Assembly: GCA_963842805.1 (NCBI GenBank)
Contig: CAWJIA010000016.1
Span: forward strand, 83,075-147,074
Direction: 5' to 3'
Length of the DNA: 64,000 nucleotides
From: an uncultured Chloroflexia bacterium
GTDB taxonomy: Bacteria; Chloroflexota; Dehalococcoidia; GIF9; UBA5629
The position numbers and the translations under genes were made by a program. Every line of letters begins with the position of its first letter. Position 1 is the stretch's first letter. The notes beneath the pieces were generated by a model. That model was given only the letters and a program-made list of their open reading frames with translations, made no database searches and was not told where the DNA came from. Positions 1,554 to 57,599 of the stretch are shown piece by piece.

Positions 1554-3179
1554 TTAAACCGCCCGCTGTATGCTATTATAAGGACACACTTGAGAGCATA
1601 CTTGACAACCAATACAACGATTCTCATCTACGCGCGGCGATAGCCTATCATTGTTTTCGCACGGTAATATTGCAGCACAATCGATTACCTCTAAACATCT
1701 ATTACATACGCTGCATCCCAAGCACCTTTTTGCCTCCTGTATGGCTTGGTCCAGCGTGAATCCCAAATTCACTTCTTTGAAGCTGTGGACTCTGAGCCTT
1801 GTTGGTAGTACTCGTGCTCTTTGGCGCTCCCTAGGGATTATGACCTCAGGTAGCATCCTAGGTCTTCTCATGACACGAACTGCAGCTTCTTCTTTCAGAT
1901 TCTCGCTCTTGAGATACCTAGAGATTGATGCCGCAGCTTTCTTCCCAGCTGCCATAGCCTCAATAGCTGTTCTGGGCCCGGTTTGAACGTCTCCCCCAGC
2001 AAAAACGCCGTCTCTAGTTGTAGCTAAGGTTGAAGGGTCGACAATTATATTTCCATGTTTATCGATTTCTACACCGGTAGCTTTGGTTAAGAAAGATAAA
2101 TCGGTAGTTTGACCAATTGCCACAATCACCGTATCAGCATCCAGATTAAACTCAGAATTTGGTATCGGTATCGGTTGTCTTCTGCCGGATGCGTCATGCG
2201 CTCCCAACTGCATGCGTGCACATCTCACTGCTGTGACTCTTCCATTAATAGCATGGATTTCAGAAGGGGCCACTAAACACTCTATTTTAACCCCTTCGCT
2301 CTCTGCCGCTTCAATTTCTGTGTCGGTCGCTGGCATTTCTTCTATTGATCTTCTATAAAGAATAGATACATCGGAATCCAATCTCACTGCACAGCGTGCA
2401 GCATCCATAGCCGCATTTCCACCCCCAATTATGGCAACCTTTCTTCCGAGTCTTACTTCTTTACCCAAATTAAGTTCACGTAAGAAATCGATACCATAGA
2501 AAACACCGCGGGAAGCTTCTCCAGGGATGCCTAATGTCTTACTACTATGGGCGCCCGTGGCGAGAAAAACAGCTTTGTAATGCCTGCGAAATAGGTCATC
2601 GATGGTCAACTCCCTGTTTATCGGGGTATTGGTCCTTATTTCAATTCCAAGTCGTACAATGCGATCAATTTCTCTTCTAAGAACTTCTTTTGGTAATCGG
2701 TATTCGGGGATTCCCGCGTACAACATGCCGCCTACAAACGGGAATGCTTCAAAAATGGTCACCTTGTAACCTAATTTACTTAAATAGTACGCACAGGAGA
2801 GTCCCGCCGGCCCCGAACCCACTATTGCTATCTTTTCACCATCTAGCCTTCTATCTGTAGTCGGCATTTCAAGAATATTATTTCCGTAGTCGACTGCCGC
2901 CCGCTTGAGATCTAAAATGGCAATTTGTTCATCTACCTCACCCCTCCTACACTTGCCCTCGCAGGGAGCATAACAAATACGGGCACAGACTGAGGGCAAT
3001 GGGCACTCACGCATGATTAGGTTAAGAGCTGCACTAAAATTGCCACGTGCAATGGCGCTAATATATTCTTGAACGTCTATTCCCAAGGGGCAAACCGATT
3101 TGCATGGCGCAACATCTATGCTCCAAGATAAACATCTATCCGTCTCAATCTTTACTATTGGTCCTAATAGTGTCCTCAT
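1554..3179 (-). CDS. GltD-family NAD(P)H-dependent FAD oxidoreductase with N- and C-terminal [4Fe-4S] domains (SudA/NfnB-like electron-transfer subunit)
   Basis: Dinucleotide-binding motif IAIVGSGPAGLSCAYYL and a second one VAIIGGGNAAMDAARCA. Cys clusters occur at both ends (CIGCQVCSQVCP at the C-terminus). The likely start is ATG at 3177-3179 (MRTLLG), with a GAGAGGG SD-like sequence upstream. The track ORF extends to 3218. Confidence 0.7.
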   Translation of the reverse strand: MRTLLGPIVKIETDRCLSWSIDVAPCKSVCPLGIDVQEYISAIARGNFSAALNLIMRECPLPSVCARICYAPCEGKCRRGEVDEQIAILDLKRAAVDYGNNILEMPTTDRRLDGEKIAIVGSGPAGLSCAYYLSKLGYKVTIFEAFPFVGGMLYAGIPEYRLPKEVLRREIDRIVRLGIEIRTNTPINRELTIDDLFRRHYKAVFLATGAHSSKTLGIPGEASRGVFYGIDFLRELNLGKEVRLGRKVAIIGGGNAAMDAARCAVRLDSDVSILYRRSIEEMPATDTEIEAAESEGVKIECLVAPSEIHAINGRVTAVRCARMQLGAHDASGRRQPIPIPNSEFNLDADTVIVAIGQTTDLSFLTKATGVEIDKHGNIIVDPSTLATTRDGVFAGGDVQTGPRTAIEAMAAGKKAAASISRYLKSENLKEEAAVRVMRRPRMLPEVIIPRERQRARVLPTRLRVHSFKEVNLGFTLDQAIQEAKRCLGCSVCNRCLEVIDCAAILPCENNDRLSPRVDENRCIGCQVCSQVCPYNSIQRAV

Positions 3180-3180
3180 A

Positions 3181-3453
3181 TTAGTTACCCTCTCTTTCAT
3201 CAGGTTCCCTCCTGGCATATAGTAAGTTTATTCTCCCCAGCTCAGCTATTTCACCGCCGCTCACAAGAGGTGTTAGAGGCTGCTTCATTGCCTTATCGGC
3301 ACAGCGAAAACACCGCGTGGCGCATGGACATGAGTCTGTATATGGGCAATTGATATTGCAAATATAACATAGGCTTTGGCAGATTCGGCTGCCTACGGAC
3401 TGGAATTGCCAGACCAAAAATTTCGGACTACCACTATTTCTAAAGTCTCGCAT
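3181..3453 (-). CDS. small Cys-rich protein (8 Cys; possible metal/Fe-S binding partner)
   Basis: 90-aa ORF whose TAA stop (3181-3183) lies 1 nt before the proposed GltD-like start, a translational-coupling-like layout. Cys pattern CQSLCYICNINCPYTDSCPCATRCFRC. No family recognised. Confidence 0.35.
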   Translation of the reverse strand: MRDFRNSGSPKFLVWQFQSVGSRICQSLCYICNINCPYTDSCPCATRCFRCADKAMKQPLTPLVSGGEIAELGRINLLYARREPDEREGN

Positions 3454-3533
3454 GTTAACTTTCGTTACTCAAGATTTGTCTCATTCTATGATGAGTACAG
3501 CAGTGACAAATATTAGTCCGTTACATCCTTTCT

Positions 3534-4781
3534 CTACTTAGGCAAGTAAAAATTCCTTCTAGAAGGAGCTGCGGTGCGAAAATATTCGGGCATATATCGT
3601 TCCTGCCCCACATTCCTGTTAACCTCACACCGTAGCCCTAATCCATGCCTTGTACGTCGCAAGCAGGCAAGACATCTGATACACTCTCTAATCCCCATCC
3701 CCTGAGCGTTGGCGACCTTATTCACCCACTCCGGATCCGCTATAAGTGGACGACATAGTGAAACCATGTCGGTTTTTCCTTCTCTTATTGCGTTTTCCAC
3801 ATTCAAGGGATCATGTATTGCCGGTGTTATTATAGGTATCTTTACAGTTCTTTTCATTGCTTCAGCCTGCGGAAGCATAGTTCCATCCTCTTCGGGAAGG
3901 TACCACTTGACTGCTTCCCAGCAACCAGCTGTTAAATGTATATAGTTTAGACCTAATTCCTCACCTATCTTGGCTATACTAGCGCTTTCGCCTATACTTA
4001 GCCCCCCTGGCATATTCTCGTCGCCAGTTAAGCGAACGCCGATAACAAAGTCAATGCCTACTAGCGATCTCGACTTTTGGATTACATTACGAAAAAATCT
4101 AGTTCTGTTATCAAAGCTACCACCATATTTGTCAGTGCGAATATTGGTACGAGGGGACAAGAAATTGTCTCCAAGATACCCGTGGGCAAAATGGAGCTCG
4201 GCACCATCGAATCCACACTCCTTCGCCAATTGTATCCCCTTAGCGTAAGCACTCTCAATCCATTCAATTTCTTCTATTGTCAGTTCTTCAGGTACCGGGC
4301 AATTGGTGTACATCTCCCAGAGGCAGGATAATCCCCTGCGAGCCTCGTACTCTATCTCACCTTTGGGTATATTATCTTTGGGAATGCCCACGACTGGCAC
4401 CGGAGAAGGAGCTTTGCTTTTTGCCCCCTTACTCTGGCGTCCGGACCCGCCTGCAAACACTTGGATAAACAATTTGGCGCCGAAAGCGTGAACGGTTTCC
4501 ACCAGTTCATTCCACGCTGGTAGGTCTGTTTTATTCGAAAGTGAGGGCACAAGGACATGCAGCGGAGTACCAGGCATTAGATATCCCCCCGGACCTGATA
4601 TGACAAGGCCTGCACCTCCTTTTGCACGTGCAGCAAGAAATGCGATATGTTCTTCGGTAATATGACCATCTTGTGAAAAATTATTGGTAACTGGTGCCAT
4701 GACCAATCTGTTCTTTATCTCAACGTTACCAATCTTGATGGGTTTGAACATCTCAGTGAATTTATTAGATTCATCCACCAT
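3534..4781 (-). CDS. Old Yellow Enzyme family NADH:flavin oxidoreductase (ene-reductase / 2,4-dienoyl-CoA reductase-like FMN domain)
   Basis: N-terminus FKPIKIGNVEIKNRLVMAPV is typical of OYE. The TIM-barrel FMN-domain pattern is present, and a C-terminal Cys cluster RECIRCLACLRR follows. Confidence 0.8.
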   Translation of the reverse strand: MVDESNKFTEMFKPIKIGNVEIKNRLVMAPVTNNFSQDGHITEEHIAFLAARAKGGAGLVISGPGGYLMPGTPLHVLVPSLSNKTDLPAWNELVETVHAFGAKLFIQVFAGGSGRQSKGAKSKAPSPVPVVGIPKDNIPKGEIEYEARRGLSCLWEMYTNCPVPEELTIEEIEWIESAYAKGIQLAKECGFDGAELHFAHGYLGDNFLSPRTNIRTDKYGGSFDNRTRFFRNVIQKSRSLVGIDFVIGVRLTGDENMPGGLSIGESASIAKIGEELGLNYIHLTAGCWEAVKWYLPEEDGTMLPQAEAMKRTVKIPIITPAIHDPLNVENAIREGKTDMVSLCRPLIADPEWVNKVANAQGMGIRECIRCLACLRRTRHGLGLRCEVNRNVGQERYMPEYFRTAAPSRRNFYLPK

Positions 4782-5007
4782 TTTGCCTCCAAATAATCTA
4801 CGCAGATCTGGCGATCATCTCCTCTATGAACTACTTATAATCAAATATTTGGTAATGCTGTTATTAACAGACCTACTGGTAACAGATAGGTTGGCTGTGG
4901 CAACCGCGGGGAGAACTGTGATCCAGTATTTAAGCGTAGTGTTAATCTGGCTCTAACGCGCACCGTACGACTTCAAAGCACGGCTCTGTATGTTGTCACC
5001 ATCTGCC

Positions 5008-5661
5008 CTATTGCTCAGCCAGTGTTTGCAACATCATATGTATGAAAGCTAAAACGTCATCTTGTCTACTACTTGCTCTGAGTCCAATCTGCCTGCTTAG
5101 CCTATTGTACTCATCCATTCTTTGTGCCTCGTTTAGGGTTAGCAATTCCTTGCCTTTGATATCATTGTTGCCCAGTGCCTTTTTTAGTCGACCCAGTAAC
5201 TCTGTCATAAGCTCAGTACCAACATTCTCGAGCTTATATTCATGTTCCGCTCTGTCTCCTTCAGCTCGTATATTCCCCTCATTCAATCTATATGTTTTTG
5301 TTTGGACGCCATCCGTCACTGATACCTTCGATATCTCTACTGGTAAGCGACCAATCAACTTGACCGCTGGATAAGGGCCTGAACGAGCAATCACGAGCCT
5401 ACCAATATCTTCAGTCCTACGAAGCACATAATACTTAGACAGTTCGACACATTCCTGTTCAAGACCCATTACCTCGCTCCAGCCATCCTTCCACTCCAGT
5501 AAGAGATATTTTTGTGGCGCTGGCGTCACCGCTGAGTCTGGCAACCCGGCCAACTTGGAAAGTTCGGTTTGTAAACTGCTACTCAATTTGGAGAATTCAA
5601 TCTCTCTCTTGGACCCGTCACCAAATTCAACGATCAGTTGCTGTGGTTTACTTTTCGACAC
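5008..5661 (-). CDS. hypothetical protein (operon partner of UbiD/HAD-like genes)
   Basis: 217-aa ORF with no recognised motif. Its start lies 1 nt after the stop of the upstream HAD-like gene. Confidence 0.45.
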   Translation of the reverse strand: MSKSKPQQLIVEFGDGSKREIEFSKLSSSLQTELSKLAGLPDSAVTPAPQKYLLLEWKDGWSEVMGLEQECVELSKYYVLRRTEDIGRLVIARSGPYPAVKLIGRLPVEISKVSVTDGVQTKTYRLNEGNIRAEGDRAEHEYKLENVGTELMTELLGRLKKALGNNDIKGKELLTLNEAQRMDEYNRLSRQIGLRASSRQDDVLAFIHMMLQTLAEQ

Positions 5662-5662
5662 T

Positions 5663-6433
5663 TCATTTCCCCTTTACAATATCTTTAAGTTGAGAGAAAC
5701 TAGATATGACATAGTCAGCTTTTGACGGGCCCCAGTCAAAATAACCGGTATACTGAATTGTCTTGAACCCCCGCTGCCGTGGTGGTTCAATGTCTGTCAT
5801 GATCTTATCCCCTACCATTACTGCCTCCGAAGGCTCAATTCCCTGGCTGCTCAAATCCTCAACCAGTAAGTCATATAGCTCCCCTGATTCCTTAAATCGA
5901 CCTTTGTATCTCGCATCAACCGAGCCATCTCTCAAATCAACTTTACCCTGAGGCGTAATTAACTTACTAAAGTACTTTATGAGTTTTTTCCTTTGCAGAA
6001 ACATTGTCACGACATCTGTACCAATTGGCCCGAGCGTCTTCTTCATCTCAGCAACGATACAAACAGTAATACCTTCATCAAGGAGGTATTGAAGCGTTTC
6101 TTCAGCGCCTTCCGCTGGCTTCAGAAGTTGCTGCTCTTTTTGCAGGAAAAGATTCATCGCTTCCTGATCATTGTCAAATACATAACTCAAGATTTCGTCT
6201 TTATGCCCTTCCTTAACGTTCGAGTAAGTTCCATATTTCTCTTTCAAATTGTGATACTTCTCGATCGTCTCATCAATAAGTTCAGGTTTGCCAATCTCTT
6301 TGCAAATGTCTCCAAACATCAACGGATTTCGTAGTCCTCGGGGGTCCATGAGACATTGCCCGAAATCTATCCCGCACCATTTCACCGTAATTCCCATTGT
6401 GCAAACCTCCCAATTGTTTATAAGATACGCCAC
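5663..6433 (-). CDS. HAD-like hydrolase superfamily protein (phosphatase-family subunit?)
   Basis: C-terminal VMVGDKIMTDIEPPRQRGFKTI fits HAD motif IV (GDxxxD). The N-terminal GIDFGQ is only a partial match to motif I. Confidence 0.5.
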   Translation of the reverse strand: MAYLINNWEVCTMGITVKWCGIDFGQCLMDPRGLRNPLMFGDICKEIGKPELIDETIEKYHNLKEKYGTYSNVKEGHKDEILSYVFDNDQEAMNLFLQKEQQLLKPAEGAEETLQYLLDEGITVCIVAEMKKTLGPIGTDVVTMFLQRKKLIKYFSKLITPQGKVDLRDGSVDARYKGRFKESGELYDLLVEDLSSQGIEPSEAVMVGDKIMTDIEPPRQRGFKTIQYTGYFDWGPSKADYVISSFSQLKDIVKGK

Positions 6434-46121: not shown

Positions 46122-47885
46122 ATGCCTTATAACCCGTTAGAAATGAGCGACTGGCAGATAGCCGAAGAGGCCGAAAAGAACATGCCTCAGCCGCTCGACT
46201 GGGTGGAAAAACTGAACCTCGAGAAAGGCGATATCATCCCCTTCGGGAAGGTGGCACGGCTCGACTACGCCCGGATTATGCGGCGGCTGGAAAATAAGCC
46301 CGACGGCAAATATATAACGGTCACAGGCATCACGCCTACACCTCTGGGAGAGGGCAAAAGCACCACCACCTGCGGCCTGCTGGAAGGCATGGGCAAGCGC
46401 GGCTTGAACGTCGGGGGCTGCATCAGGCAGCCTTCGGGCGGACCCACCATGAATATCAAGGGCACGGCCGCCGGCGGCGGCAATGCCCTGCTCATCCCCA
46501 TGACCGAGTTTTCCATGGGGCTGACCGGCGATATCAACGATATTACCAACGCCCACAACCTGGCCATGGTAGCAGTCACGGCACGTATGCAGCACGAGAG
46601 AAATTACGATGACCGCAAGCTAATGGCGCTATCCAATATGAAACGACTCGATATCGACCCCACCCGCATTGAGATGGGTTGGGTGATGGACTTCTGTGCG
46701 CAGAGCCTGCGCAACATCGTCATCGGCATCGGCGGCAAGATGGACGGCTACACCATGCAGTCCAAATTCCAGATCGCGGTCAGCTCCGAGCTGATGGCGC
46801 TGCTGGCCATCGTCAAGGACCTGGCCGACCTGCGCCACCGCATGGACCGTATCACGGTGGCCTACAGCAAACACGGCAACCCCATCACGACGGGAGACCT
46901 TCAGGTGGGCGGCGCCATGACGGCTTTGATGCGCAATACTATCAACCCCACGCTGTGCTGCACCGCAGAATACCAGCCGCTGATGGTACACACCGGCCCC
47001 TTCGCCAACATCGCCCTGGGACAGTCTTCCATCATCGCCGACAGGATCGGCTTAAAGATGTTCGATTATCACGTGACCGAGAGCGGCTTCGCCGCCGATA
47101 TCGGATTCGAGAAATTCTGCAATGTGAAATGCAGGCTGAGCGACCTCAGGCCCAATGCCTCGGTACTGGTAACAACTGTACGCGCCCTCAAGATGCACGG
47201 CGGAGGCCCGGCCATAGTGCCCGGACTGCCCATGCCCGAGGAATATATGCGGGAAGACCTGGGGCTGCTGGAGAAAGGCATCCCCAACATGCTCCATCAC
47301 ATAAAAATCATTAAAGAAGCCGGGGTCTGCCCGGTGGTCTGCATCAATGTTTTCCATTCCGATACCGAAGCCGAGATAGCTATGGTAAAGAGGGCTGCCG
47401 AGCTGGCGGGTGCACGTTGCGCCGTTTCGCGGCACTGGGAGTTCGGAGGGGAAGGCGCCCTGGAGCTGGCCGACGTGGTTAAAGAAGCCTGCAACGATGA
47501 TAATGAGTTCAAATTCCTGTACCCGCCCGAAATGAAGCTGCGCGACAGGGTGGATAAAATCGCCCGTGAGGTTTACGGCGCCGACGGGACATCCTGGTCG
47601 CTGGCTGCGGAAACCAGGGCCAAAGCCCTGGAAGCTGACCCTGAGTATGACGACTATGCCACTATCATGGTCAAGACGCCGCTCAGCCTGAGCCACGACC
47701 CGGCGCTCAAAGGCGTGCCCAGGGGCTGGATCCTGCCCATCAGGGATATTATGGTCTATTCAGGCGCCAGGTTCCTGTGCTTCTTCGCCGGCGAGGTCAA
47801 CCTCATGCCCGGCACGGGCTCCAACCCGGCTTTCCGCCGCATCGACATCGACCCGCATACCGGCAAAGTACACGGCATTTTCTAA
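46122..47885 (+). CDS. fhs: formate--tetrahydrofolate ligase
   Basis: The P-loop [13 protein letters not shown] and the overall FTHFS pattern. At 587 aa the length fits. Confidence 0.9.
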
Positions 47886-47920
47886 TCTTGATACTTGCAC
47901 CATGATCGGAGGATAGTAGT

Positions 47921-48709
47921 ATGCAGTTTAAAACTTTGCTCTTTGACATAGCCGACAATGTTGCCACGATCACCCTGAACCGGCCGGAGGCCAACCACGC
48001 CATCGACCTGCAAATGGCCAAAGACCTCTGCTATGCCGCCATGTACTGCAGCGAGAACTCTGCGGTCCGGGCAATTCTGATAACGGCAACCGGCCCCGTA
48101 TTTTGTGCAGGCGGCGATTTAAAGGCTATGGCCGGTGAAGTCGAAAAAACTCCCGATCTTCTCAAGGAAATGTCCAGCTACCTCCATCTTGCCATCTCGC
48201 GCCTGACACGCGGGGCGCCGCCTGTCGTTATTGCAATAAACGGTATTGCCATAGGCGCCGGTATGAGCCTTGCCTGTGTGGGCGACATAGCGCTGGCCGC
48301 TCAGTCCGCCACTTTTACGGTAGCCTATACGCAGGTAGGACTCACTCCGGATGGGGGCCTCACATATTTCCTGCCGCTCCTGGTCGGGCTTAGGCGGGCC
48401 TCCGAACTCGTGCTGACCAACCGGCGGTTGTCCGCCAAAGAGGCGCTTGATCTCGGTCTCGTTACCGAAGTGGTGCCGGATGCCGAGCTGATGACCCGTG
48501 CACGAGCGATCACCGGGCAACTTGCCTCAGGGGCAACACGGGCTTTCGGAGCGGCCCGCAAGCTCATACAGGGCGGCCTTTCCTCATCGCTTGAAACGCA
48601 GATGGAATTTGAAAGCCAGTCCATCGTGGATATGGCACGTACATCAGACGCTCAGGACGCATTCGCCGCTTTCGCCGAGAAGCGCAAACCGAGATTCCAG
48701 GGTAAGTGA
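47921..48709 (+). CDS. enoyl-CoA hydratase/isomerase family
   Basis: ITLNRPEANHAID...ILITATGPVFCAGGDL. Confidence 0.8.
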   Translation: MQFKTLLFDIADNVATITLNRPEANHAIDLQMAKDLCYAAMYCSENSAVRAILITATGPVFCAGGDLKAMAGEVEKTPDLLKEMSSYLHLAISRLTRGAPPVVIAINGIAIGAGMSLACVGDIALAAQSATFTVAYTQVGLTPDGGLTYFLPLLVGLRRASELVLTNRRLSAKEALDLGLVTEVVPDAELMTRARAITGQLASGATRAFGAARKLIQGGLSSSLETQMEFESQSIVDMARTSDAQDAFAAFAEKRKPRFQGK

Positions 48710-48715
48710 TAAAAT

Positions 48716-48812
48716 CGCCCGCGACGTCAACCTCATGCCCGGTATGGCTCCAACCCGACCTTCCGCCACATCGATATCGATCAGCATCCCCTGATGGTAC
48801 GTGGGATATCGT
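48716..48812 (+). pseudogene. degenerate duplicate of the fhs 3' end
   Basis: About 85% identity over ~65 nt to 47800-47870 (gtcaacctcatgcccgg...ctccaacccg..cttccgcc.catcga.atcga). It carries a frameshift relative to the Fhs C-terminus. Confidence 0.6.
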
Positions 48813-48874
48813 GGGGCTTTTACTTTATTAACTATCGATTATCTAGCGCTAGACTACTATTTGTTGTAAAGCGC

Positions 48875-51820
48875 TCATACGTTAAATATTTTTCTCAGAT
48901 CTTCAGAGACCCTCTCATATACTTTAGGCCGAATGCTCTCTGGGGATGAAAAGAATGTGCTCAGCATAGATCTAACGGTAAAAACCGATGTGGATGAATT
49001 AAATCGACCATATTTTTTCAAATTCTCCATCCAAATCTCCATTATCTCATGAGGGTTAGATGATGGGCTTGTATATTCTGTAATCTTCTGATTTAAAACG
49101 ACAACGACCTCATTGTTCTTGCCGCCCTCTAGGGGTTCAAAGTAATAATCACATTCACCTAGATCAGTTAACTGCCCTGTAGCCTCAGGTTTTTTTATCT
49201 CAGCAATAAGTCGTACGGGCAATAATTGATAAAAGTTTAATCTTTGCGCCAATTGTTTGAAATTTAAATCAACCATTTGAGCATAACTCTCTATAAAATA
49301 ATTAAAATATAGTTTAATATATTCAAGAAGTGTTTGATCATTATAAAATTGAGTAACCCACCCACCTATCTTAGGAATACGATCAGTTTCGGGCAAGAGC
49401 GGTGCTCCAATAGAAGTATAGCCGCTACTATTGAGTTGATTTAGTCTTCTAATTAGATCCGTTATATTGATTTGTCGCCCATTAATACTTAGTATGGCAA
49501 TATTTCCTGATATTTTCTTCCTTAATTCCTCTTTGAAGTGGTTTATTTCGATGGGGATAACTCCTGGTATATATTTATTCTTAACAAGAACTGCAACCTC
49601 AGATTGTGTTTGCTCGTAGATGAGGGTGGGTGGTTCATGAAGATGTTTATCCTGAATCACTCGTTCCAAGTCATTCCAAAGATCTGCCAGAGCCATTCTA
49701 TGGGCTCCCGAAGGACTAATATCATTTTTCGATAGCACCTTATGTGTAAATTTCTCCAATATTCCACGTTCGAATAGTATATCAGGTGGCTTCCATTGGG
49801 GAAGATCATCCAAAAATTTAATTTTAGTACCCAGTTTTTCCACTAGCGAATAGCCATATAAGAGATGCAAAATGCCTCCGTCACTTGAGAACTTTCCCAC
49901 TATCGCTAAATTCGATATTGGATCATGTGAATAAAATGGCATTAACTGGTTTGTTAAATTAGGAAGCCATCGTGAGACTATTTGTGATCTTGCATCCAAC
50001 ATGTCCTGCAGGATTATCTTGGTTAATGAATCATCGGATGCAACTGGAATAACCAATCCCGTCGATGGGCTCATCAAACATCTCGTGTATAAATATAGGT
50101 CATCTCTTAATACTTCGAAAAGCAACTTTCTCATTTCTGAACTATTATCAATAAGGCCATAAGTGAACATAACTACCTGTTCCCATGCTGAGTCTAGTAC
50201 AAATTCAGATATTGTTTGCCCTTTTCTTATCCTGTCAATTAGCAATTCGCTTGCGAAATATTCGCGAAAAGATGCGTGCCAGAATGTGTAACTATCTCCA
50301 TCTTTCCTAAGCATACCACTAGCAACCAATTCATCTAACAAATTGATGCTGGAGAAGTTAACAGACTCATGCTTTGTTATTTCACTAAGTTTAGAAACTA
50401 CATCGTTTTCTGAAATCGCATAATTGGATTTCAGTTGCATATGCACCGCCAACACAGCCAAAGCCCGTTTTTTCCAAAATGAGGCGATCAAGGCGCCCCT
50501 TGTTATTTCCCACTTACCAAATAGAAATTCTATATATTGCTTATAAACCTCCGATTTCGATGAAGGCTGCTGTCCTTCGGCATTAATTTTTGCAATAAAA
50601 CTCAGCATTAATGGATGTCTCATGAGATCATGAAAGGAGGAATCCCAGGAATAATATTTGGTGGAATTGAAGTTTTTACCAGAATATTCGCTAAGGTATT
50701 TTATGATATCGGCGTCTGATAGTGGTTCCATATAAACGCTTGAAAAGCCCAAGGCTGCGCTGCCGGTTTCAGATCGACATGTCACTATTATCTTGAGCGT
50801 CTTATAATCTTTGGCAATGGCCTGTATTTGCAAGACTTTTTTCGCCACTTCACTAGGCGATATTTCTTCGAGACCATCCAATAATAGAATTACTGTGTAA
50901 TTCTCAAATAAATTTCTAATCAAATCTTGATCGAATTCAAATCCTTGTCGCTTAAGAATATGTTCGATAAAAGAGAAAATGTTATTTTCCAACCAATCTT
51001 TCATGTCAAGATAAATTGGTATATATCCCGCTCTAGGGTCTTTTAATGAGCGCTCGGCGAATCTAGTAGCAAGCTTTAATAGCTCTGTCGTTTTGCCTGA
51101 TCCGGCTGGTCCTATAATCTTTACCTTTCCGTCTTTTGAAAGTACTTCATCGATTGATACCGGGGAGTCATTAAAATATTTCACCTTCATAGGTATGTAA
51201 TATTTGGATGCTTCTTCAGAAGTGGGCAACAGTTTCAAGTAGTGAATTATTACTTCATCAAGTCGTATTTTTGTTATCTTCAAAAGTTGCTGAGCATATT
51301 TTTCTAACTTTACGGCCAACCCCGGATCAGCTAGAAGCCTCATAACATGCGGATGGTCTTTCTGTAATTGATCGTTTTCAACTAGACGACGTATAAAATC
51401 ATCGAAAGATGAAGTAACTAAAGTATCCAATTCGCCAAGTGAGTTAAAATTGGCATATTTAAATCTGGTTTGGATGTCTTGAACTAGTTTTTGTAACTCA
51501 ATGCTCCTTACTGAATTCTTTAAAAAGGCAAATATAGGCTTATTAACTCTTATTGCCTCTGCATATTCCTGTTCAACGGCATTTGTGACATTTTCCCCAA
51601 GGAGTATTAGAAATAAATGACAATCGCGAACTCCACGAAGAAAATATTCCGAGGGCGGTAAATCAGAGGCAGGAGTATGCTCAAATGCCCAAGGCAATGT
51701 GGGGGAATAGTTCTTAACGATATTTATTACATAGGTCCTCTCAGCTTCCAGGTTTTCGGTATTCTTATCTTGAATTGAGCTTATGAATACTCGTATCTTT
51801 TCTTCAATATAAATCCCCAT
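48875..51820 (-). CDS. DUF4062 N-terminal domain + NACHT-type STAND NTPase (bacterial NLR-like defence candidate)
   Basis: The N-terminus IRVFISSIQDKNTENLEAER...CHLFLILLG...KPIFAF matches DUF4062. The Walker A is KIIGPAGSGKTT, the Walker B is VILLLDGLEE, and the sensor TCR is IIVTCRSE. At 981 aa the gene sits in a low-GC islet. Confidence 0.7.
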   Translation of the reverse strand: MGIYIEEKIRVFISSIQDKNTENLEAERTYVINIVKNYSPTLPWAFEHTPASDLPPSEYFLRGVRDCHLFLILLGENVTNAVEQEYAEAIRVNKPIFAFLKNSVRSIELQKLVQDIQTRFKYANFNSLGELDTLVTSSFDDFIRRLVENDQLQKDHPHVMRLLADPGLAVKLEKYAQQLLKITKIRLDEVIIHYLKLLPTSEEASKYYIPMKVKYFNDSPVSIDEVLSKDGKVKIIGPAGSGKTTELLKLATRFAERSLKDPRAGYIPIYLDMKDWLENNIFSFIEHILKRQGFEFDQDLIRNLFENYTVILLLDGLEEISPSEVAKKVLQIQAIAKDYKTLKIIVTCRSETGSAALGFSSVYMEPLSDADIIKYLSEYSGKNFNSTKYYSWDSSFHDLMRHPLMLSFIAKINAEGQQPSSKSEVYKQYIEFLFGKWEITRGALIASFWKKRALAVLAVHMQLKSNYAISENDVVSKLSEITKHESVNFSSINLLDELVASGMLRKDGDSYTFWHASFREYFASELLIDRIRKGQTISEFVLDSAWEQVVMFTYGLIDNSSEMRKLLFEVLRDDLYLYTRCLMSPSTGLVIPVASDDSLTKIILQDMLDARSQIVSRWLPNLTNQLMPFYSHDPISNLAIVGKFSSDGGILHLLYGYSLVEKLGTKIKFLDDLPQWKPPDILFERGILEKFTHKVLSKNDISPSGAHRMALADLWNDLERVIQDKHLHEPPTLIYEQTQSEVAVLVKNKYIPGVIPIEINHFKEELRKKISGNIAILSINGRQINITDLIRRLNQLNSSGYTSIGAPLLPETDRIPKIGGWVTQFYNDQTLLEYIKLYFNYFIESYAQMVDLNFKQLAQRLNFYQLLPVRLIAEIKKPEATGQLTDLGECDYYFEPLEGGKNNEVVVVLNQKITEYTSPSSNPHEIMEIWMENLKKYGRFNSSTSVFTVRSMLSTFFSSPESIRPKVYERVSEDLRKIFNV

Positions 51821-51880
51821 TCGCCATTCTCCGCACTTTCCGGATGGATTTCCCCAATTACATAAAATATCCTAAAATTA

Positions 51881-52426
51881 TTACTTATTTCCGTACCATG
51901 TATTTGCGAGTTCTCTAATGAAGCCAAGATATCTTAGCGCATCGTTCTGCAAAACATTCCCCGTATTTGCTAAATAGAGATTAGCAGTTATCGCTTCATC
52001 TAAATTTTTATAGCATTTTTGGGAAATTGAAGATAGCTTGTCAGCATTAGCGTGTGAAATGGCATTCCGCAACTTGCGTAAGTTCGTAATGGCAGAATGC
52101 TGTTGCCGAGTGATCAATTGCTGTGTATAAGAAAGGCTTGCCTTTGCTGCCAAATTCGCCGATTCTATTGACTTATTCTCGGTTTTACCACAACTTCTCA
52201 GTTTGTCCATTAATATTATTTCCAAAATGCTCTCACACCAAAGCAATACACTCAAAAAATATCCATCAATATAAAGTTGCACAGCCTCGGTATAGTATTC
52301 CCATAATAATTTAGGTAATGTTCCAGTAAATGAAATCGATTTTAGTTGTCTTCGTCTGAGGGCTCTATTTTCAAGTGTATCTTTGTCTTTCTGTCTCAGA
52401 TAGTCAAGATATTCTTCGTGTTTCAT
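51881..52426 (-). CDS. HEPN-motif protein (predicted RNase), operon-upstream of the STAND NTPase
   Basis: RKLRNAISHAN carries an R-x4-H HEPN motif in a predicted all-helical 181-aa protein. It lies 60 nt upstream of the NACHT gene on the same strand. Confidence 0.45.
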   Translation of the reverse strand: MKHEEYLDYLRQKDKDTLENRALRRRQLKSISFTGTLPKLLWEYYTEAVQLYIDGYFLSVLLWCESILEIILMDKLRSCGKTENKSIESANLAAKASLSYTQQLITRQQHSAITNLRKLRNAISHANADKLSSISQKCYKNLDEAITANLYLANTGNVLQNDALRYLGFIRELANTWYGNK

Positions 52427-52570
52427 ATCTTACATATATTTTATGCATAGCAGAGAACTCAGGTCCATATACTCAAAATACCATAAATTTCAAATTAATG
52501 GGAGAATAAATGAAACTCTATCAAGCTATTATTACTCAAGCAAATTGAAGTATGGTGAAATTGGAGGTAT

Positions 52571-53302
52571 GTGATGAAATATACCGATGGATGGTTTGGT
52601 GTTTTATCAAAATCAGCTCTTATTAACTTAAATGATTATTATCAACAAAGTGAATCTCTACTAGAATCCGCCAAAAATACTAGCTTGTCTAGAATTGAAG
52701 AACAAGTAAATAGGATGAGAAAAGAGCGAAACCTAACCGAAGATGATTTATGGGGAGAACGTGAAGCATTAATTGCCGCGGATCACGAAGTATCTTATAA
52801 CATTTTTTTCCCCAACTTATTTAGGTACTCCATTATTATTCTAGTCACCGTAATTTTAGAGGATCATTTAAATAAATTGTCATGGACTCTATATAAACTT
52901 AAAGCGAATGAACTACCATCTCCAAATCCCACAGGTGATACCATTAAAGATTGTAAAGCTTATATCAACAAATTTAACTTGTCTTATGACCAATCTATTT
53001 GGGAGTTTGTAGATGATCTTATTTGTATTCGGAATTGCATTGTTCATGCATCAGGCGATGTGTCGCGTCGAAACCCCGATCAAGAATCGCAACTTAATGA
53101 TATTTCTAAGAAGAATATCGGCGTAAGTATAAAGGATAGTAGATATACTCATCTATATTTGGATGACGATACGATCATTATCGAACCACGTTACTGTGAA
53201 TGTATAATTCGCGACGTTACAATTCTTTTTGAAACACTCTGCAAAGCGGCCAATTTGCCTACTGGGATCAAGGTCGACTTTCATAACAATGAATCGAACT
53301 AG
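52571..53302 (+). CDS. HEPN-motif protein (second, divergent), divergently transcribed from the STAND operon
   Basis: ICIRNCIVHASGD is an R-x4-H motif with the typical RN...H form. The protein is 243 aa. Confidence 0.45.
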   Translation: MMKYTDGWFGVLSKSALINLNDYYQQSESLLESAKNTSLSRIEEQVNRMRKERNLTEDDLWGEREALIAADHEVSYNIFFPNLFRYSIIILVTVILEDHLNKLSWTLYKLKANELPSPNPTGDTIKDCKAYINKFNLSYDQSIWEFVDDLICIRNCIVHASGDVSRRNPDQESQLNDISKKNIGVSIKDSRYTHLYLDDDTIIIEPRYCECIIRDVTILFETLCKAANLPTGIKVDFHNNESN

Positions 53303-53332
53303 AGACTAATCAAGAATCCGTAGCTTTTATGC

Positions 53333-53455
53333 TCCCCACCCTTTTAAGCTAATCTTCCTGTGTATTTAACAAGCCTGGGCAAAATACTCCTCATCTTCGG
53401 CGGCGTTATCATCGTGGTTGGGTTGCTGTTCATCTTCGCATAGCACATACCTCTT
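53333..53455 (+). pseudogene. degenerate copy of the upstream region and 5' end of the DUF2905 gene (intact copy at 57335-57460)
   Basis: About 85% identity over ~115 nt (aagccttggtaaaatactcctcatcttcggcggcgt.atcat.gtggt.gggctgct.ttc.tcttcgca). An in-frame TAG replaces CAG. Confidence 0.6.
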
Positions 53456-53464
53456 ATATAGCAA

Positions 53465-53490
53465 GCAGCCGGGCGAAGGCCCGGCTGCTA
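53465..53490. terminator. GC-rich hairpin (10-bp stem, GAAG loop), likely terminator for hbd and/or islet boundary
   Basis: GCAGCCGGGC-GAAG-GCCCGGCTGC, followed on the plus strand by TAGATTTTCAAATT. Confidence 0.5.
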
Positions 53491-53530
53491 GATTTTCAAA
53501 TTCGATCGGTAGTTGAAGCGCGTCTAAGCT

Positions 53531-54703
53531 TTACAGCGTGATCGCTCCTTTTTTGAGCATCTTGGTGGGCTGGAACCATTTGATACCTGTCTTCTTGGCT
53601 ATGGCCTCGCACCTCTCGGCCACCTTGTCCCAACCCATCTGTTTGCCCAGCGCAAACGGGCCTGTAGGCCTGCCGCTACCATATATCATAGCCATATCTA
53701 TCTCGGCCGCGCTCTTGGCTACGCCCTGCTCCAGCAGCTTGGTACCCTCATTCACCTGGATGCCCATCATGTCCGCCAGGTCGAGGTTCGGCTCCGTCTT
53801 GGTCAGGTCGATGTTGGGCCTGTTGCCGCCCGGCCACTCGAAATTGCCTTTGCCAGTCTTCTTGCCCAACTCGCCGGCCTCAACCTTCTTGAGCAGCCAG
53901 GGCCGCGGAGCGAAGTCCTTAGTCAAAGTTGCAGCATAATACTTTCCACCATTGACGGATATATCCAGCCCGGAGTAGTCCATCGTCTCGAAGGGGCCCA
54001 TCGGCGCACCCGTTGACCTGACCTTGGCATCCACGCCCTCGGGGTCAACCAGGCCCTTATCCCTCAGCCAGGAGAGATACATGGCTGAAGGCGCATTCAT
54101 GCGGTTGAAGATGAAGCCAGGAGTATCCTTCTCAACCCTGACAACCACCATCGGCCCCCTGAAGTTCTTCCAGCCTTTCACCAGGTCGTAAGCCACGTTC
54201 ATTGTTTCGTCCGACGTCTTGTTGCCGCGGATCACTTCGACCAGGGCCATCATGGCCGGCGGATTGAAGAAGTGCACGCCGCAGACCTTATCCTGGCGCT
54301 TGGTGGCCGAGCCGATCTTGGTTATGCTCATGGTAGAGGTATTCGAGGCCAGTATGGCATGTTTGGGAGCCGCCTCGTCCATCTCCTTGAAGATCTTCTG
54401 CTTCAGGTCCAGTATCTCGGGCGCCGCCTCGATGGCGAAGTCCGCGTCTTTCACGGCATCATTGAGCACCGTGAAGCCCTTAATGCTGCCCATGATTTTG
54501 TCCATGGCGTCCTGCGTCATCTTCTGCTTCGAGACCTGCTTGCCCACGCTGTCCTTGATTTTTCCGATTCCCTTATCCACGAATTCCTGCTTGATATCAT
54601 AGAGGTTAACCTTGTATCCGGCCATGGCCGCCAGTTCGCCTATCCCATGGCCCATGTCGCCTGCGCCGATGATGGCGACAGTCTTGACTTCTTCAATCTT
54701 CAT
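53531..54703 (-). CDS. 3-hydroxyacyl-CoA dehydrogenase (NAD-binding plus C-terminal domain)
   Basis: VKTVAIIGAGDMGHGIGELAAMAGYKVNLYDI is the Rossmann motif, with the HFFNPP motif downstream. Confidence 0.8.
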   Translation of the reverse strand: MKIEEVKTVAIIGAGDMGHGIGELAAMAGYKVNLYDIKQEFVDKGIGKIKDSVGKQVSKQKMTQDAMDKIMGSIKGFTVLNDAVKDADFAIEAAPEILDLKQKIFKEMDEAAPKHAILASNTSTMSITKIGSATKRQDKVCGVHFFNPPAMMALVEVIRGNKTSDETMNVAYDLVKGWKNFRGPMVVVRVEKDTPGFIFNRMNAPSAMYLSWLRDKGLVDPEGVDAKVRSTGAPMGPFETMDYSGLDISVNGGKYYAATLTKDFAPRPWLLKKVEAGELGKKTGKGNFEWPGGNRPNIDLTKTEPNLDLADMMGIQVNEGTKLLEQGVAKSAAEIDMAMIYGSGRPTGPFALGKQMGWDKVAERCEAIAKKTGIKWFQPTKMLKKGAITL

Positions 54704-57368: not shown

Positions 57369-57599
57369 GTGGATATGGCAAGCCTTGGTAAAATACTCCT
57401 CATCTTCGGCGGCGTAATCATAGTGGTCGGGCTGCTATTCGTCTTCGCACAGCACATCCCCTTCTTCGGCAAGCTGCCGGGAGATATATTTATCAAGAAG
57501 GACAATTTCTCGTTTTATTTCCCTATAGTTACCTTCCTCATCATCAGCATCGTGCTCACCATCATCATTAACGTGATCATACATTTCCTCAACAGATAA
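57369..57599 (+). CDS. DUF2905-family small membrane protein
   Basis: KILLIFGGVIIVVGLLFVFAQHIPFFGKLPGDIFIKKDNFSFYFPI is the characteristic DUF2905 sequence. Confidence 0.6.
   Translation: MDMASLGKILLIFGGVIIVVGLLFVFAQHIPFFGKLPGDIFIKKDNFSFYFPIVTFLIISIVLTIIINVIIHFLNR

Follow-up and report, generated by a model that had tools for sequence, protein, structure and literature searches.

A low-GC insertion in an uncultured Dehalococcoidia genome carries an NIR-NACHT NLR-like gene and two HEPN-like genes, probably as an islet of separate immune modules

A 64,000-nucleotide (nt) stretch of contig CAWJIA010000016.1 (assembly GCA_963842805.1) from an uncultured bacterium of the Dehalococcoidia, referred to here as the window, carries a 4,802-nt insertion (48728-53529) of low guanine plus cytosine (GC) content that holds three genes of predicted immune type. 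A 981-amino-acid (aa) NLR-like protein that joins an N-terminal DUF4062 (NIR) domain to a NACHT NTPase (48875-51820, minus strand; assigned by open reading frame (ORF) call, Pfam and orthologues) is preceded, 60 nt upstream and on the same strand, by a stand-alone, DUF4145-like HEPN protein of 181 aa (51881-52426), and an HEPN-like protein of 243 aa with a long N-terminal helical hairpin (52571-53302, plus strand) is divergent from the other two; position 1 is the first letter of the window and all coordinates are on its forward strand. The insertion is probably a mini defence island of three separately distributed, and probably separately acting, immune modules, in which the NLR-like protein would act through a NADase and the HEPN proteins as RNases. 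An earlier note, made from the letters of the window, had described the same ORFs, with lengths, strands and a 60-nt gap that the ORF calls bear out, and had put them forward as a candidate undescribed defence system; what stands of that proposal is an acquired islet of immune-type genes, but not one three-gene system, as the genes were not found to co-occur elsewhere.

The insertion was resolved by comparison, with blastn and gene maps, to four related Dehalococcoidia contigs (L137-L140; ~89.5% nt identity to the window), in which the site is empty and ech (plus strand, enoyl-CoA hydratase) and hbd (minus strand, 3-hydroxyacyl-CoA dehydrogenase) are convergent and ~90-100 nt apart. Homology to these relatives stops at 48727 (at 48713 for L139/L140), 18 nt beyond the ech stop, and restarts at 53530, at the hbd stop; set against the empty site, these breakpoints directly demonstrate an insertion of 4,802 nt that takes the place of the ~90-nt ech-hbd spacer. 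GC content falls to 0.31-0.40 from ~48750 to ~53400 versus 0.55-0.62 on either side (300-nt windows), with the whole insert at 0.375 compared with ~0.57 outside, so that the compositionally foreign segment of the earlier note is borne out and now has an empty site in four relatives as well. The three genes are alike in composition (0.373, 0.368 and 0.351 for the 981-aa, 181-aa and 243-aa genes, respectively). The flanking housekeeping proteins fall in 90%-identity clusters whose named members are Dehalococcoidia metagenome-assembled genomes (MAGs), and no integrase, transposase or tRNA is present in the 4,802-nt insert. At the sequence level, the interpretation of 48728-53529 as a horizontally acquired segment of immune-type genes is supported.

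The distribution of the three families was explored in 131 fetched loci, including nine with close orthologues of the NACHT protein and ~115 with more distant DUF4062/NACHT relatives. Profile hidden Markov models (HMMs) of both HEPN families, run against all ORFs of the 131 loci (E<=1), matched only their own loci, and a tblastn search of 123 loci with the two small proteins returned nothing. Neither the trio nor any two of its genes turned up again in the loci scanned, and the homologues of each family sit without the other two. Recurrence in other genomes, which the earlier note had proposed as a check on its system, thus failed to appear by either tblastn or profile HMM. A 4.8-kb Logan contig (L124) carrying the same three genes was considered as an independent trio and rejected; it is 100% identical to window positions 48616-53403 and therefore represents the same organism. 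As judged from these comparisons, a three-gene system is not supported, and the locus instead appears to be an islet of separately distributed modules.

Both domains that the earlier note had assigned to the 981-aa protein, a DUF4062-NACHT STAND NTPase, score above their Pfam gathering cut-offs: DUF4062 (PF13271) at aa 10-76 with 30.3 bits versus 24.7, and NACHT (PF05729) at aa 234-379 with 29.4 bits versus 26.7; further Pfam nSTAND matches are all sub-threshold. The N-terminal region (aa 10-100; 51521-51793, minus strand) is a putative TIR-like NADase domain with residues F12, S14-S15, R28, E47 and E85. In our own alignment of 31 divergent DUF4062 domains none of F12, S14, S15, R28, E47 and E85 varies, and PF13271 is recorded among precomputed annotations on 15/15 members of the family. 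Experiments have shown DUF4062, since renamed NIR, to act as a TIR-like NADase (10.64898/2026.05.01.722283; 10.64898/2026.09.04.749371; 10.64898/2026.06.25.731849), and the same three preprints report that antiphage defence needs its conserved Glu (KpSwz E97, PsAvs2 E108, Vulcan E98, Eva01 F11/E87-Y88). Based on motif position, F12 and E85 are matched to the residues of Eva01, KpSwz and PsAvs2, and E85 (E85-Y86 codons at 51563-51568) is the putative catalytic Glu. Searched against PDB sequences, aa 1-156 had no match.

The NACHT NTPase and winged-helix module spans aa 234-530 (50231-51121, minus strand) and holds Walker A GPAGSGKTT (51086-51112), Walker B ILLLDGLEE (50864-50890), sensor-1 TCR (aa 347-349) and the winged-helix His motif TFWHASFREY (50258-50287), each re-read at its coordinates on the minus strand. 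The NACHT signatures GxxGxGK[ST], hhhhDG[LF][DE]E, sensor-1 Arg and winged-helix His are therefore all present in the protein. Across 15 sequences (the 981-aa protein and 14 orthologues) the invariant positions include F12 and E85 from the N-terminal domain, G237-T245 of Walker A, D315-G316-L317-E319 of Walker B, C348-R349 and H515. The family profile aligns aa 234-530 with the NACHT and winged-helix domains of NLRC4, with FWHASFREY opposite FFHKSFQEY, at a sequence similarity that is marginal (E 5e-4). The remaining ~420 aa (aa 560-981; 48878-50143, minus strand) form a presumed sensor with no recognisable domain or repeat and have zero matches in Pfam, NCBIfam, PADLOC and PDB sequences. This C-terminal region is conserved amongst the orthologues (column identity 0.63-0.81) and distant relatives are alignable to ~aa 910. 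The 981-aa protein thus appears to combine sensor, switch and effector in one polypeptide, as a complete NLR-like defence protein would, and is probably self-sufficient; with an effector of its own, it would not need separate HEPN effectors.

As has been reported previously (10.64898/2026.09.04.749371), NIR is the N-terminal effector in Avs and 'other NLR-like proteins'. The 981-aa protein shares with PsAvs2 and these NIR proteins an N-terminal DUF4062 domain with a conserved aromatic residue and Glu, the succession of effector, STAND NTPase and C-terminal region, and a location in foreign or defence-type DNA; by analogy, NAD+ depletion and abortive infection would be its expected output. It differs from Avs2 in that its NTPase scores as NACHT and not as an Avs2-type STAND, and from the Avs/NIR systems in that its C-terminal region is without TPR, WD40, LRR or FGE-sulfatase repeats or any recognisable domain. 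With bNACHT (Kibby et al., 10.1101/2022.07.19.500537) and NLRC4 it has in common Walker A and B, the sensor-1 Arg and the winged-helix His motif (FWHxSFxEY). DUF4062 also adjoins NACHT in human TEP1, NWD1, NWD2 and NPHP3 (2026 NIR preprints), and the order of the two domains in the 981-aa protein is the same, whereas WD40, LRR and TROVE domains are lacking. Related single-protein DUF4062 systems include Swarozyc (10.64898/2026.05.01.722283), Evangelion (10.64898/2026.06.25.731849) and Vulcan. The DUF4062-NACHT architecture, the NADase logic (2026) and stand-alone HEPN defence genes are already known; what is new is a small environmental NIR-NACHT family with an uncharacterised presumed sensor and two poorly modelled HEPN families.

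The NIR-NACHT family is small (15 clusters) and environmental, with 14 full-length orthologues at 46-50% identity, the one with a named source coming from a Dehalococcoidales MAG, before scores fall to E ~1e-12. Nine orthologue loci, representing about seven distinct neighbourhoods, were examined. Neighbouring genes include type III CRISPR RAMP genes, an IS110 transposase, a phage-type integrase, an impB fragment, and RCC1-repeat, ABC-transporter, PEP-mutase and asparagine-synthase genes, and no functional partner is shared. An all-against-all comparison of neighbours likewise revealed no conserved partner for any of the three families. The sole recurring neighbours are backbone genes (asparagine synthase and the impB fragment) common to related genomes. 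A truncated impB/mucB fragment and an asparagine-synthase gene lie beside the NACHT orthologue in L079 (3368-3559), L080 (9575-9862) and L081 (10494-10682), and the NACHT gene stands on different sides of this block in the three loci, which suggests that the NLR gene moves within a local hotspot. In L078 the orthologue is ~1 kb downstream of a same-strand run of ORFs (1669-6122), of which only the last (5304-6122) is annotated, as RAMP-family; the run may be a type III CRISPR-Cas effector cluster and hence a defence-island context. Amongst plasmids the 981-aa protein had just generic NACHT matches (<=43% query coverage) and the small proteins were unmatched, and amongst viral contigs there was no match for the NLR-like protein.

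The RNAISH motif of the 181-aa protein is at 52052-52069 on the minus strand and, like the RNCIVH motif of the 243-aa protein (53030-53047, plus strand), was re-read at its coordinates; VFISS, E85-Y86, GPAGSGKTT, LLLDGLEE and TCR were verified in the same way. A word-indexed search with the 181-aa protein found the protein itself alone, and its apparent status as an orphan was overturned by an exhaustive HMMER search that recovered 48 relatives, mostly stand-alone proteins of 180-190 aa. One of the 48, P0059 (2345 aa, 20 matched stretches), was discarded as a spurious eukaryotic tandem-repeat protein. Within the family R120 is conserved in 31/31 sequences, N121 in 29/31 and H125 in 30/31, and an alignment of 28 sequences has R24, E69, R120 and H125 invariant and N121 nearly so. 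The AlphaFold2 model, a confident one (pLDDT 93.2), predicts an HEPN helical bundle, with HEPN domains as the best structural matches. The protein falls below the Pfam cut-offs of the HEPN clan (DUF4145, 16.2 bits versus 23.1; RiboL-PSP, 16.1 versus 28.4), while 7/28 of its relatives match DUF4145 (best E 1.6e-5), an HEPN family (Pfam clan CL0291) typical of restriction-modification (R-M) and other conflict operons (PMC3710099).

For the 181-aa protein, the homologue closest in sequence (47% identity) occurs in an island with Eco29kI R-M, HEPN_Swt1, SLFN_AlbA_2 and PIN_12 genes and no NACHT gene, and other homologues (L134/L135) are located between alcohol dehydrogenase and flavin reductase genes. 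In these last two loci an unannotated ORF of 147 aa with no Pfam match (L134 2351-2794; L135 1527-1970) follows 6 nt after the homologue, for which it may serve in that lineage as a partner or an antitoxin; the window has no equivalent of this ORF.

The 243-aa protein has 11 homologues at 34-60% identity, and R153, N154, C155 and H158 of the motif, in addition to D97 and H98, are invariant in 12/12 members of the family. It matches the PADLOC model RTasHEPN (E 2.3e-7), as do 10/12 family members at E<=1e-3, across the motif region. No member of the family has a Pfam match; the Pfam check that the earlier note had called for thus recovers DUF4062 and NACHT above cut-off, but leaves the 181-aa protein below the HEPN-clan cut-offs and the 243-aa protein unmatched. 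Homologues of the 243-aa protein are found after a protein kinase gene, after an AAA and S8-protease gene pair, or after a DnaJ-trypsin fusion. Full-length but more distant relatives (26-29% identity) with the same VRNCIVHA motif are lone genes on viral contigs (L141-L147), and in L143 the relative (5779-6432) lies in a P2-like prophage, between its portal and replication-nickase genes. This portal-nickase locus may be one of the anti-phage hotspots of P2-like phages. The L143 relative adjoins an HNH-like gene and a 417-aa gene of no known function. P2-like phages are reported to bear hotspots of anti-phage systems (PMC9122126).

The assignment of both small proteins as HEPN-like, with an Rx4H motif conserved in their families, is supported by the predicted folds, for which HEPN domains are the best matches, and agrees with the earlier note, as does the distinction that it drew between the two as unrelated; they belong to separate families, though both are HEPN-like. 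Structure models of both are confident, and like other stand-alone HEPN proteins both are small and keep R-N-x3-H; a four-helix HEPN core is predicted for the 181-aa protein and, less firmly, for the 243-aa protein, which has an extra long N-terminal helical hairpin. PDB sequence searches with profiles of the two families gave nothing useful. No MNT gene or plausible antitoxin ORF lies beside either HEPN gene (intergenic ORFs are <=12 aa), and a reading of the HEPN genes as HEPN-MNT toxin-antitoxin modules was ruled out by the lack of an MNT ORF.

Taken as a working model for the favoured mini defence island, the C-terminal region (~aa 560-981) of the NLR-like protein would recognise a phage- or infection-derived signal, after which the NACHT NTPase would drive nucleotide-dependent oligomerisation and bring the N-terminal DUF4062/NIR TIR-like domains together. 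The NIR domains would then hydrolyse NAD+ through the invariant E85, and loss of NAD+ would stop the infected cell from growing or kill it (abortive infection). The 181-aa and 243-aa proteins, with an intact R-N-x3-H, would most likely be RNases of the Abi, HepS or DUF4145 type that act independently once triggered.

Several observations weigh against this explanation. The DUF4062 and NACHT scores are just a few bits over their thresholds, and the Pfam DUF4062 alignment ends at aa 76, short of E85, so that the assignment of E85 as catalytic draws on our own alignment and on the descriptions in the cited papers. None of the PADLOC and NCBIfam models for named systems (Avs, bNACHT, EruA, DS8) claims the 981-aa protein at its cut-off, the best sub-threshold matches being PADLOC mad8 (E 0.0035) and NCBIfam EruA (35.9 bits versus 1000) and DS8 (35.1 versus 790). 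For the 243-aa protein the fold evidence is moderate, as HEPN is the best match but generic helical bundles score almost as high. A solitary HEPN protein without an antitoxin requires some mechanism of control, and none was identified. The informative contexts retrieved are few (~4 for the 181-aa family; three plus four viral for the 243-aa family), and the identical GC content of the three genes and their arrival in one block would also fit a joint transfer, as one unit, from a donor not yet sampled.

That last observation bears on the view that the trio, as the earlier note proposed, or at least the pair of 181-aa HEPN and NACHT proteins, is one integrated system in the window genome, with NLR activation depleting NAD+ and licensing the HEPN RNase(s), or with HEPN as a co-sensor or regulator. 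We consider such a system unlikely. It is retained because the 60-nt gap between the two same-strand genes, the lack of a detected terminator between them and a GGAG 8 nt ahead of the NACHT ATG allow co-transcription, and the 181-aa and NACHT genes may indeed be co-transcribed in the window genome. All three genes, of identical GC content, are within a single 4.8-kb insert, and cooperation between HEPN and STAND proteins has precedent in bacterial HEPN-STAND fusions such as Bacillus cereus gi 229028907 and Npun_F6454 (PMC3710099). These fusions likewise combine HEPN with a STAND NTPase in a conflict context, but here the genes are separate and paired in no conserved way, and the STAND protein has its own, predicted NADase, effector. 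Against integration, the nine orthologue and ~115 distant loci were negative by HMM for both HEPN families, with the one identical contig belonging to the same organism; the orthologues at 46-50% identity are solitary with no common functional neighbour, the HEPN homologues lack NACHT, and the NACHT protein already holds an effector domain. Amongst the loci compared, the juxtaposition of the 181-aa and NACHT genes is specific to the window genome.

It is also rather unlikely that immunity is confined to the NLR-like protein and that the two HEPN proteins, as addiction modules of toxin type or as degenerate domains without catalytic activity (regulators or adaptors that bind nucleotides), keep the island stable or do something unrelated. 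The placement of some 181-aa homologues amid housekeeping genes (alcohol dehydrogenase and flavin reductase, L134/L135) would fit this, but neither gene has the adjacent MNT or antitoxin ORF of an addiction module, and the (near-)invariance of R-N-x3-H in both families, along with the invariant upstream Glu of the 181-aa family, argues for an active RNase. Further, HEPN homologues are found in an R-M/HEPN/SLFN/PIN defence island and at an accessory locus of a P2-like prophage, and the families match PADLOC HEPN models drawn from defence systems. A decaying remnant of a mobile element, with non-functional genes and no present role, is very improbable. The insert does have pseudogene pieces of two genes, fhs and one for a small membrane protein, at its edges (see below), lacks an integrase or transposase, and lies in a region rearranged relative to close relatives; the three ORFs are nonetheless full-length, with 100% coverage relative to their homologues, contain no internal stops or frameshifts, and keep all of the family-invariant catalytic residues.

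With the mini defence island as the preferred reading, the locus represents a clean, breakpoint-resolved defence islet in the Dehalococcoidia, an uncultivated lineage little studied for phage-host biology, and it reveals no new multi-gene system. It contributes an environmental family without repeats to the recently recognised NIR-NADase NLR-like proteins; this family has the same domain pairing as human TEP1 and NWD1. It also contributes two families of small HEPN proteins whose catalytic motifs are invariant; both are inadequately covered by Pfam and are candidates for single-gene defence assays, and one (the 243-aa family) has relatives in a P2-like prophage accessory locus. More tentatively, the repeat-free C-terminal region of ~420 aa could be a new kind of NLR sensor domain for some phage or infection cue, and the 181-aa and 243-aa proteins could represent two uncharacterised single-gene families of HEPN antiphage proteins. 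A bolder version would have the HEPN gene upstream of the NLR gene recruited here as a second, RNA-directed output of NLR activation.

Beyond the coding regions, the AT-rich intergenic region between the divergent genes (52427-52573) presumably holds the promoters of both transcription units. A consensus scan of the locus for promoters gave a single weak minus-strand -35/-10 match (52467-52438) that was not above shuffled sequence, the corresponding scan for terminators gave nothing above shuffled expectation, and Rfam had zero matches in 47500-54500. The true start of the 243-aa ORF is probably the ATG at 52574, giving a protein of 242 aa, as this is the choice of the gene callers and is preceded by GGAGG 6 nt ahead. 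Between the genes of the insert and the hbd stop, a GC-rich hairpin, GCAGCCGGGC-GAAG-GCCCGGCTGC (53464-53490), was read by eye from the sequence and is likely a bidirectional terminator; it lacks a T-run and was missed by the consensus scan.

At the left edge of the insert lies a degraded copy of the 3' end of fhs (formate-tetrahydrofolate ligase; 48715-48786, plus strand) with 87% identity over 67 nt to 47785-47851 and 85-86% identity to the fhs 3' end of the relatives, and reads ...VNLMPG..., out of frame with any gene. At the right edge, the 5' end of a gene for a small membrane protein recurs in degraded form (53370-53448, plus strand; 89% identity over 79 nt to 57379-57457) and translates to GKILLIFGGVIIVVGLLFIFA followed by a premature stop, and the intact gene (57369-57599) is 4 kb away. 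The last ~68 nt of fhs are duplicated both in the window (47785-47851 and 48715-48786) and elsewhere in the relatives (L137 11697-11764 and 15080-15147), and the duplicates flank different cargo in the window and in the relatives. This end of fhs may be a site used repeatedly for recombination, or one of att type.

The surrounding region is rearranged compared to the relatives, as a 7-kb block between fhs and ech in all four (L137 11765-18865) is absent from the window at 47886-47920 and a glycyl-radical enzyme gene is relocated to the opposite side of the locus. The five genes of the block encode Condensation-like, DUF2089, DUF4097 and FHA proteins and a 152-aa ORF. At the far end of the window, positions 1-25500 have a uniformly low GC content (~0.44 versus 0.55-0.60 for the backbone) and metabolic genes that are nearly all on the minus strand, including a UbiD-type decarboxylase, PPDK_N and PEP-utilizer proteins (phenylphosphate-synthase-like), an aldehyde:ferredoxin oxidoreductase, an OYE-type flavin oxidoreductase, and HMGL-like, CCG and FAD-oxidase proteins; this segment is possibly a horizontally acquired cluster for anaerobic aromatic degradation.

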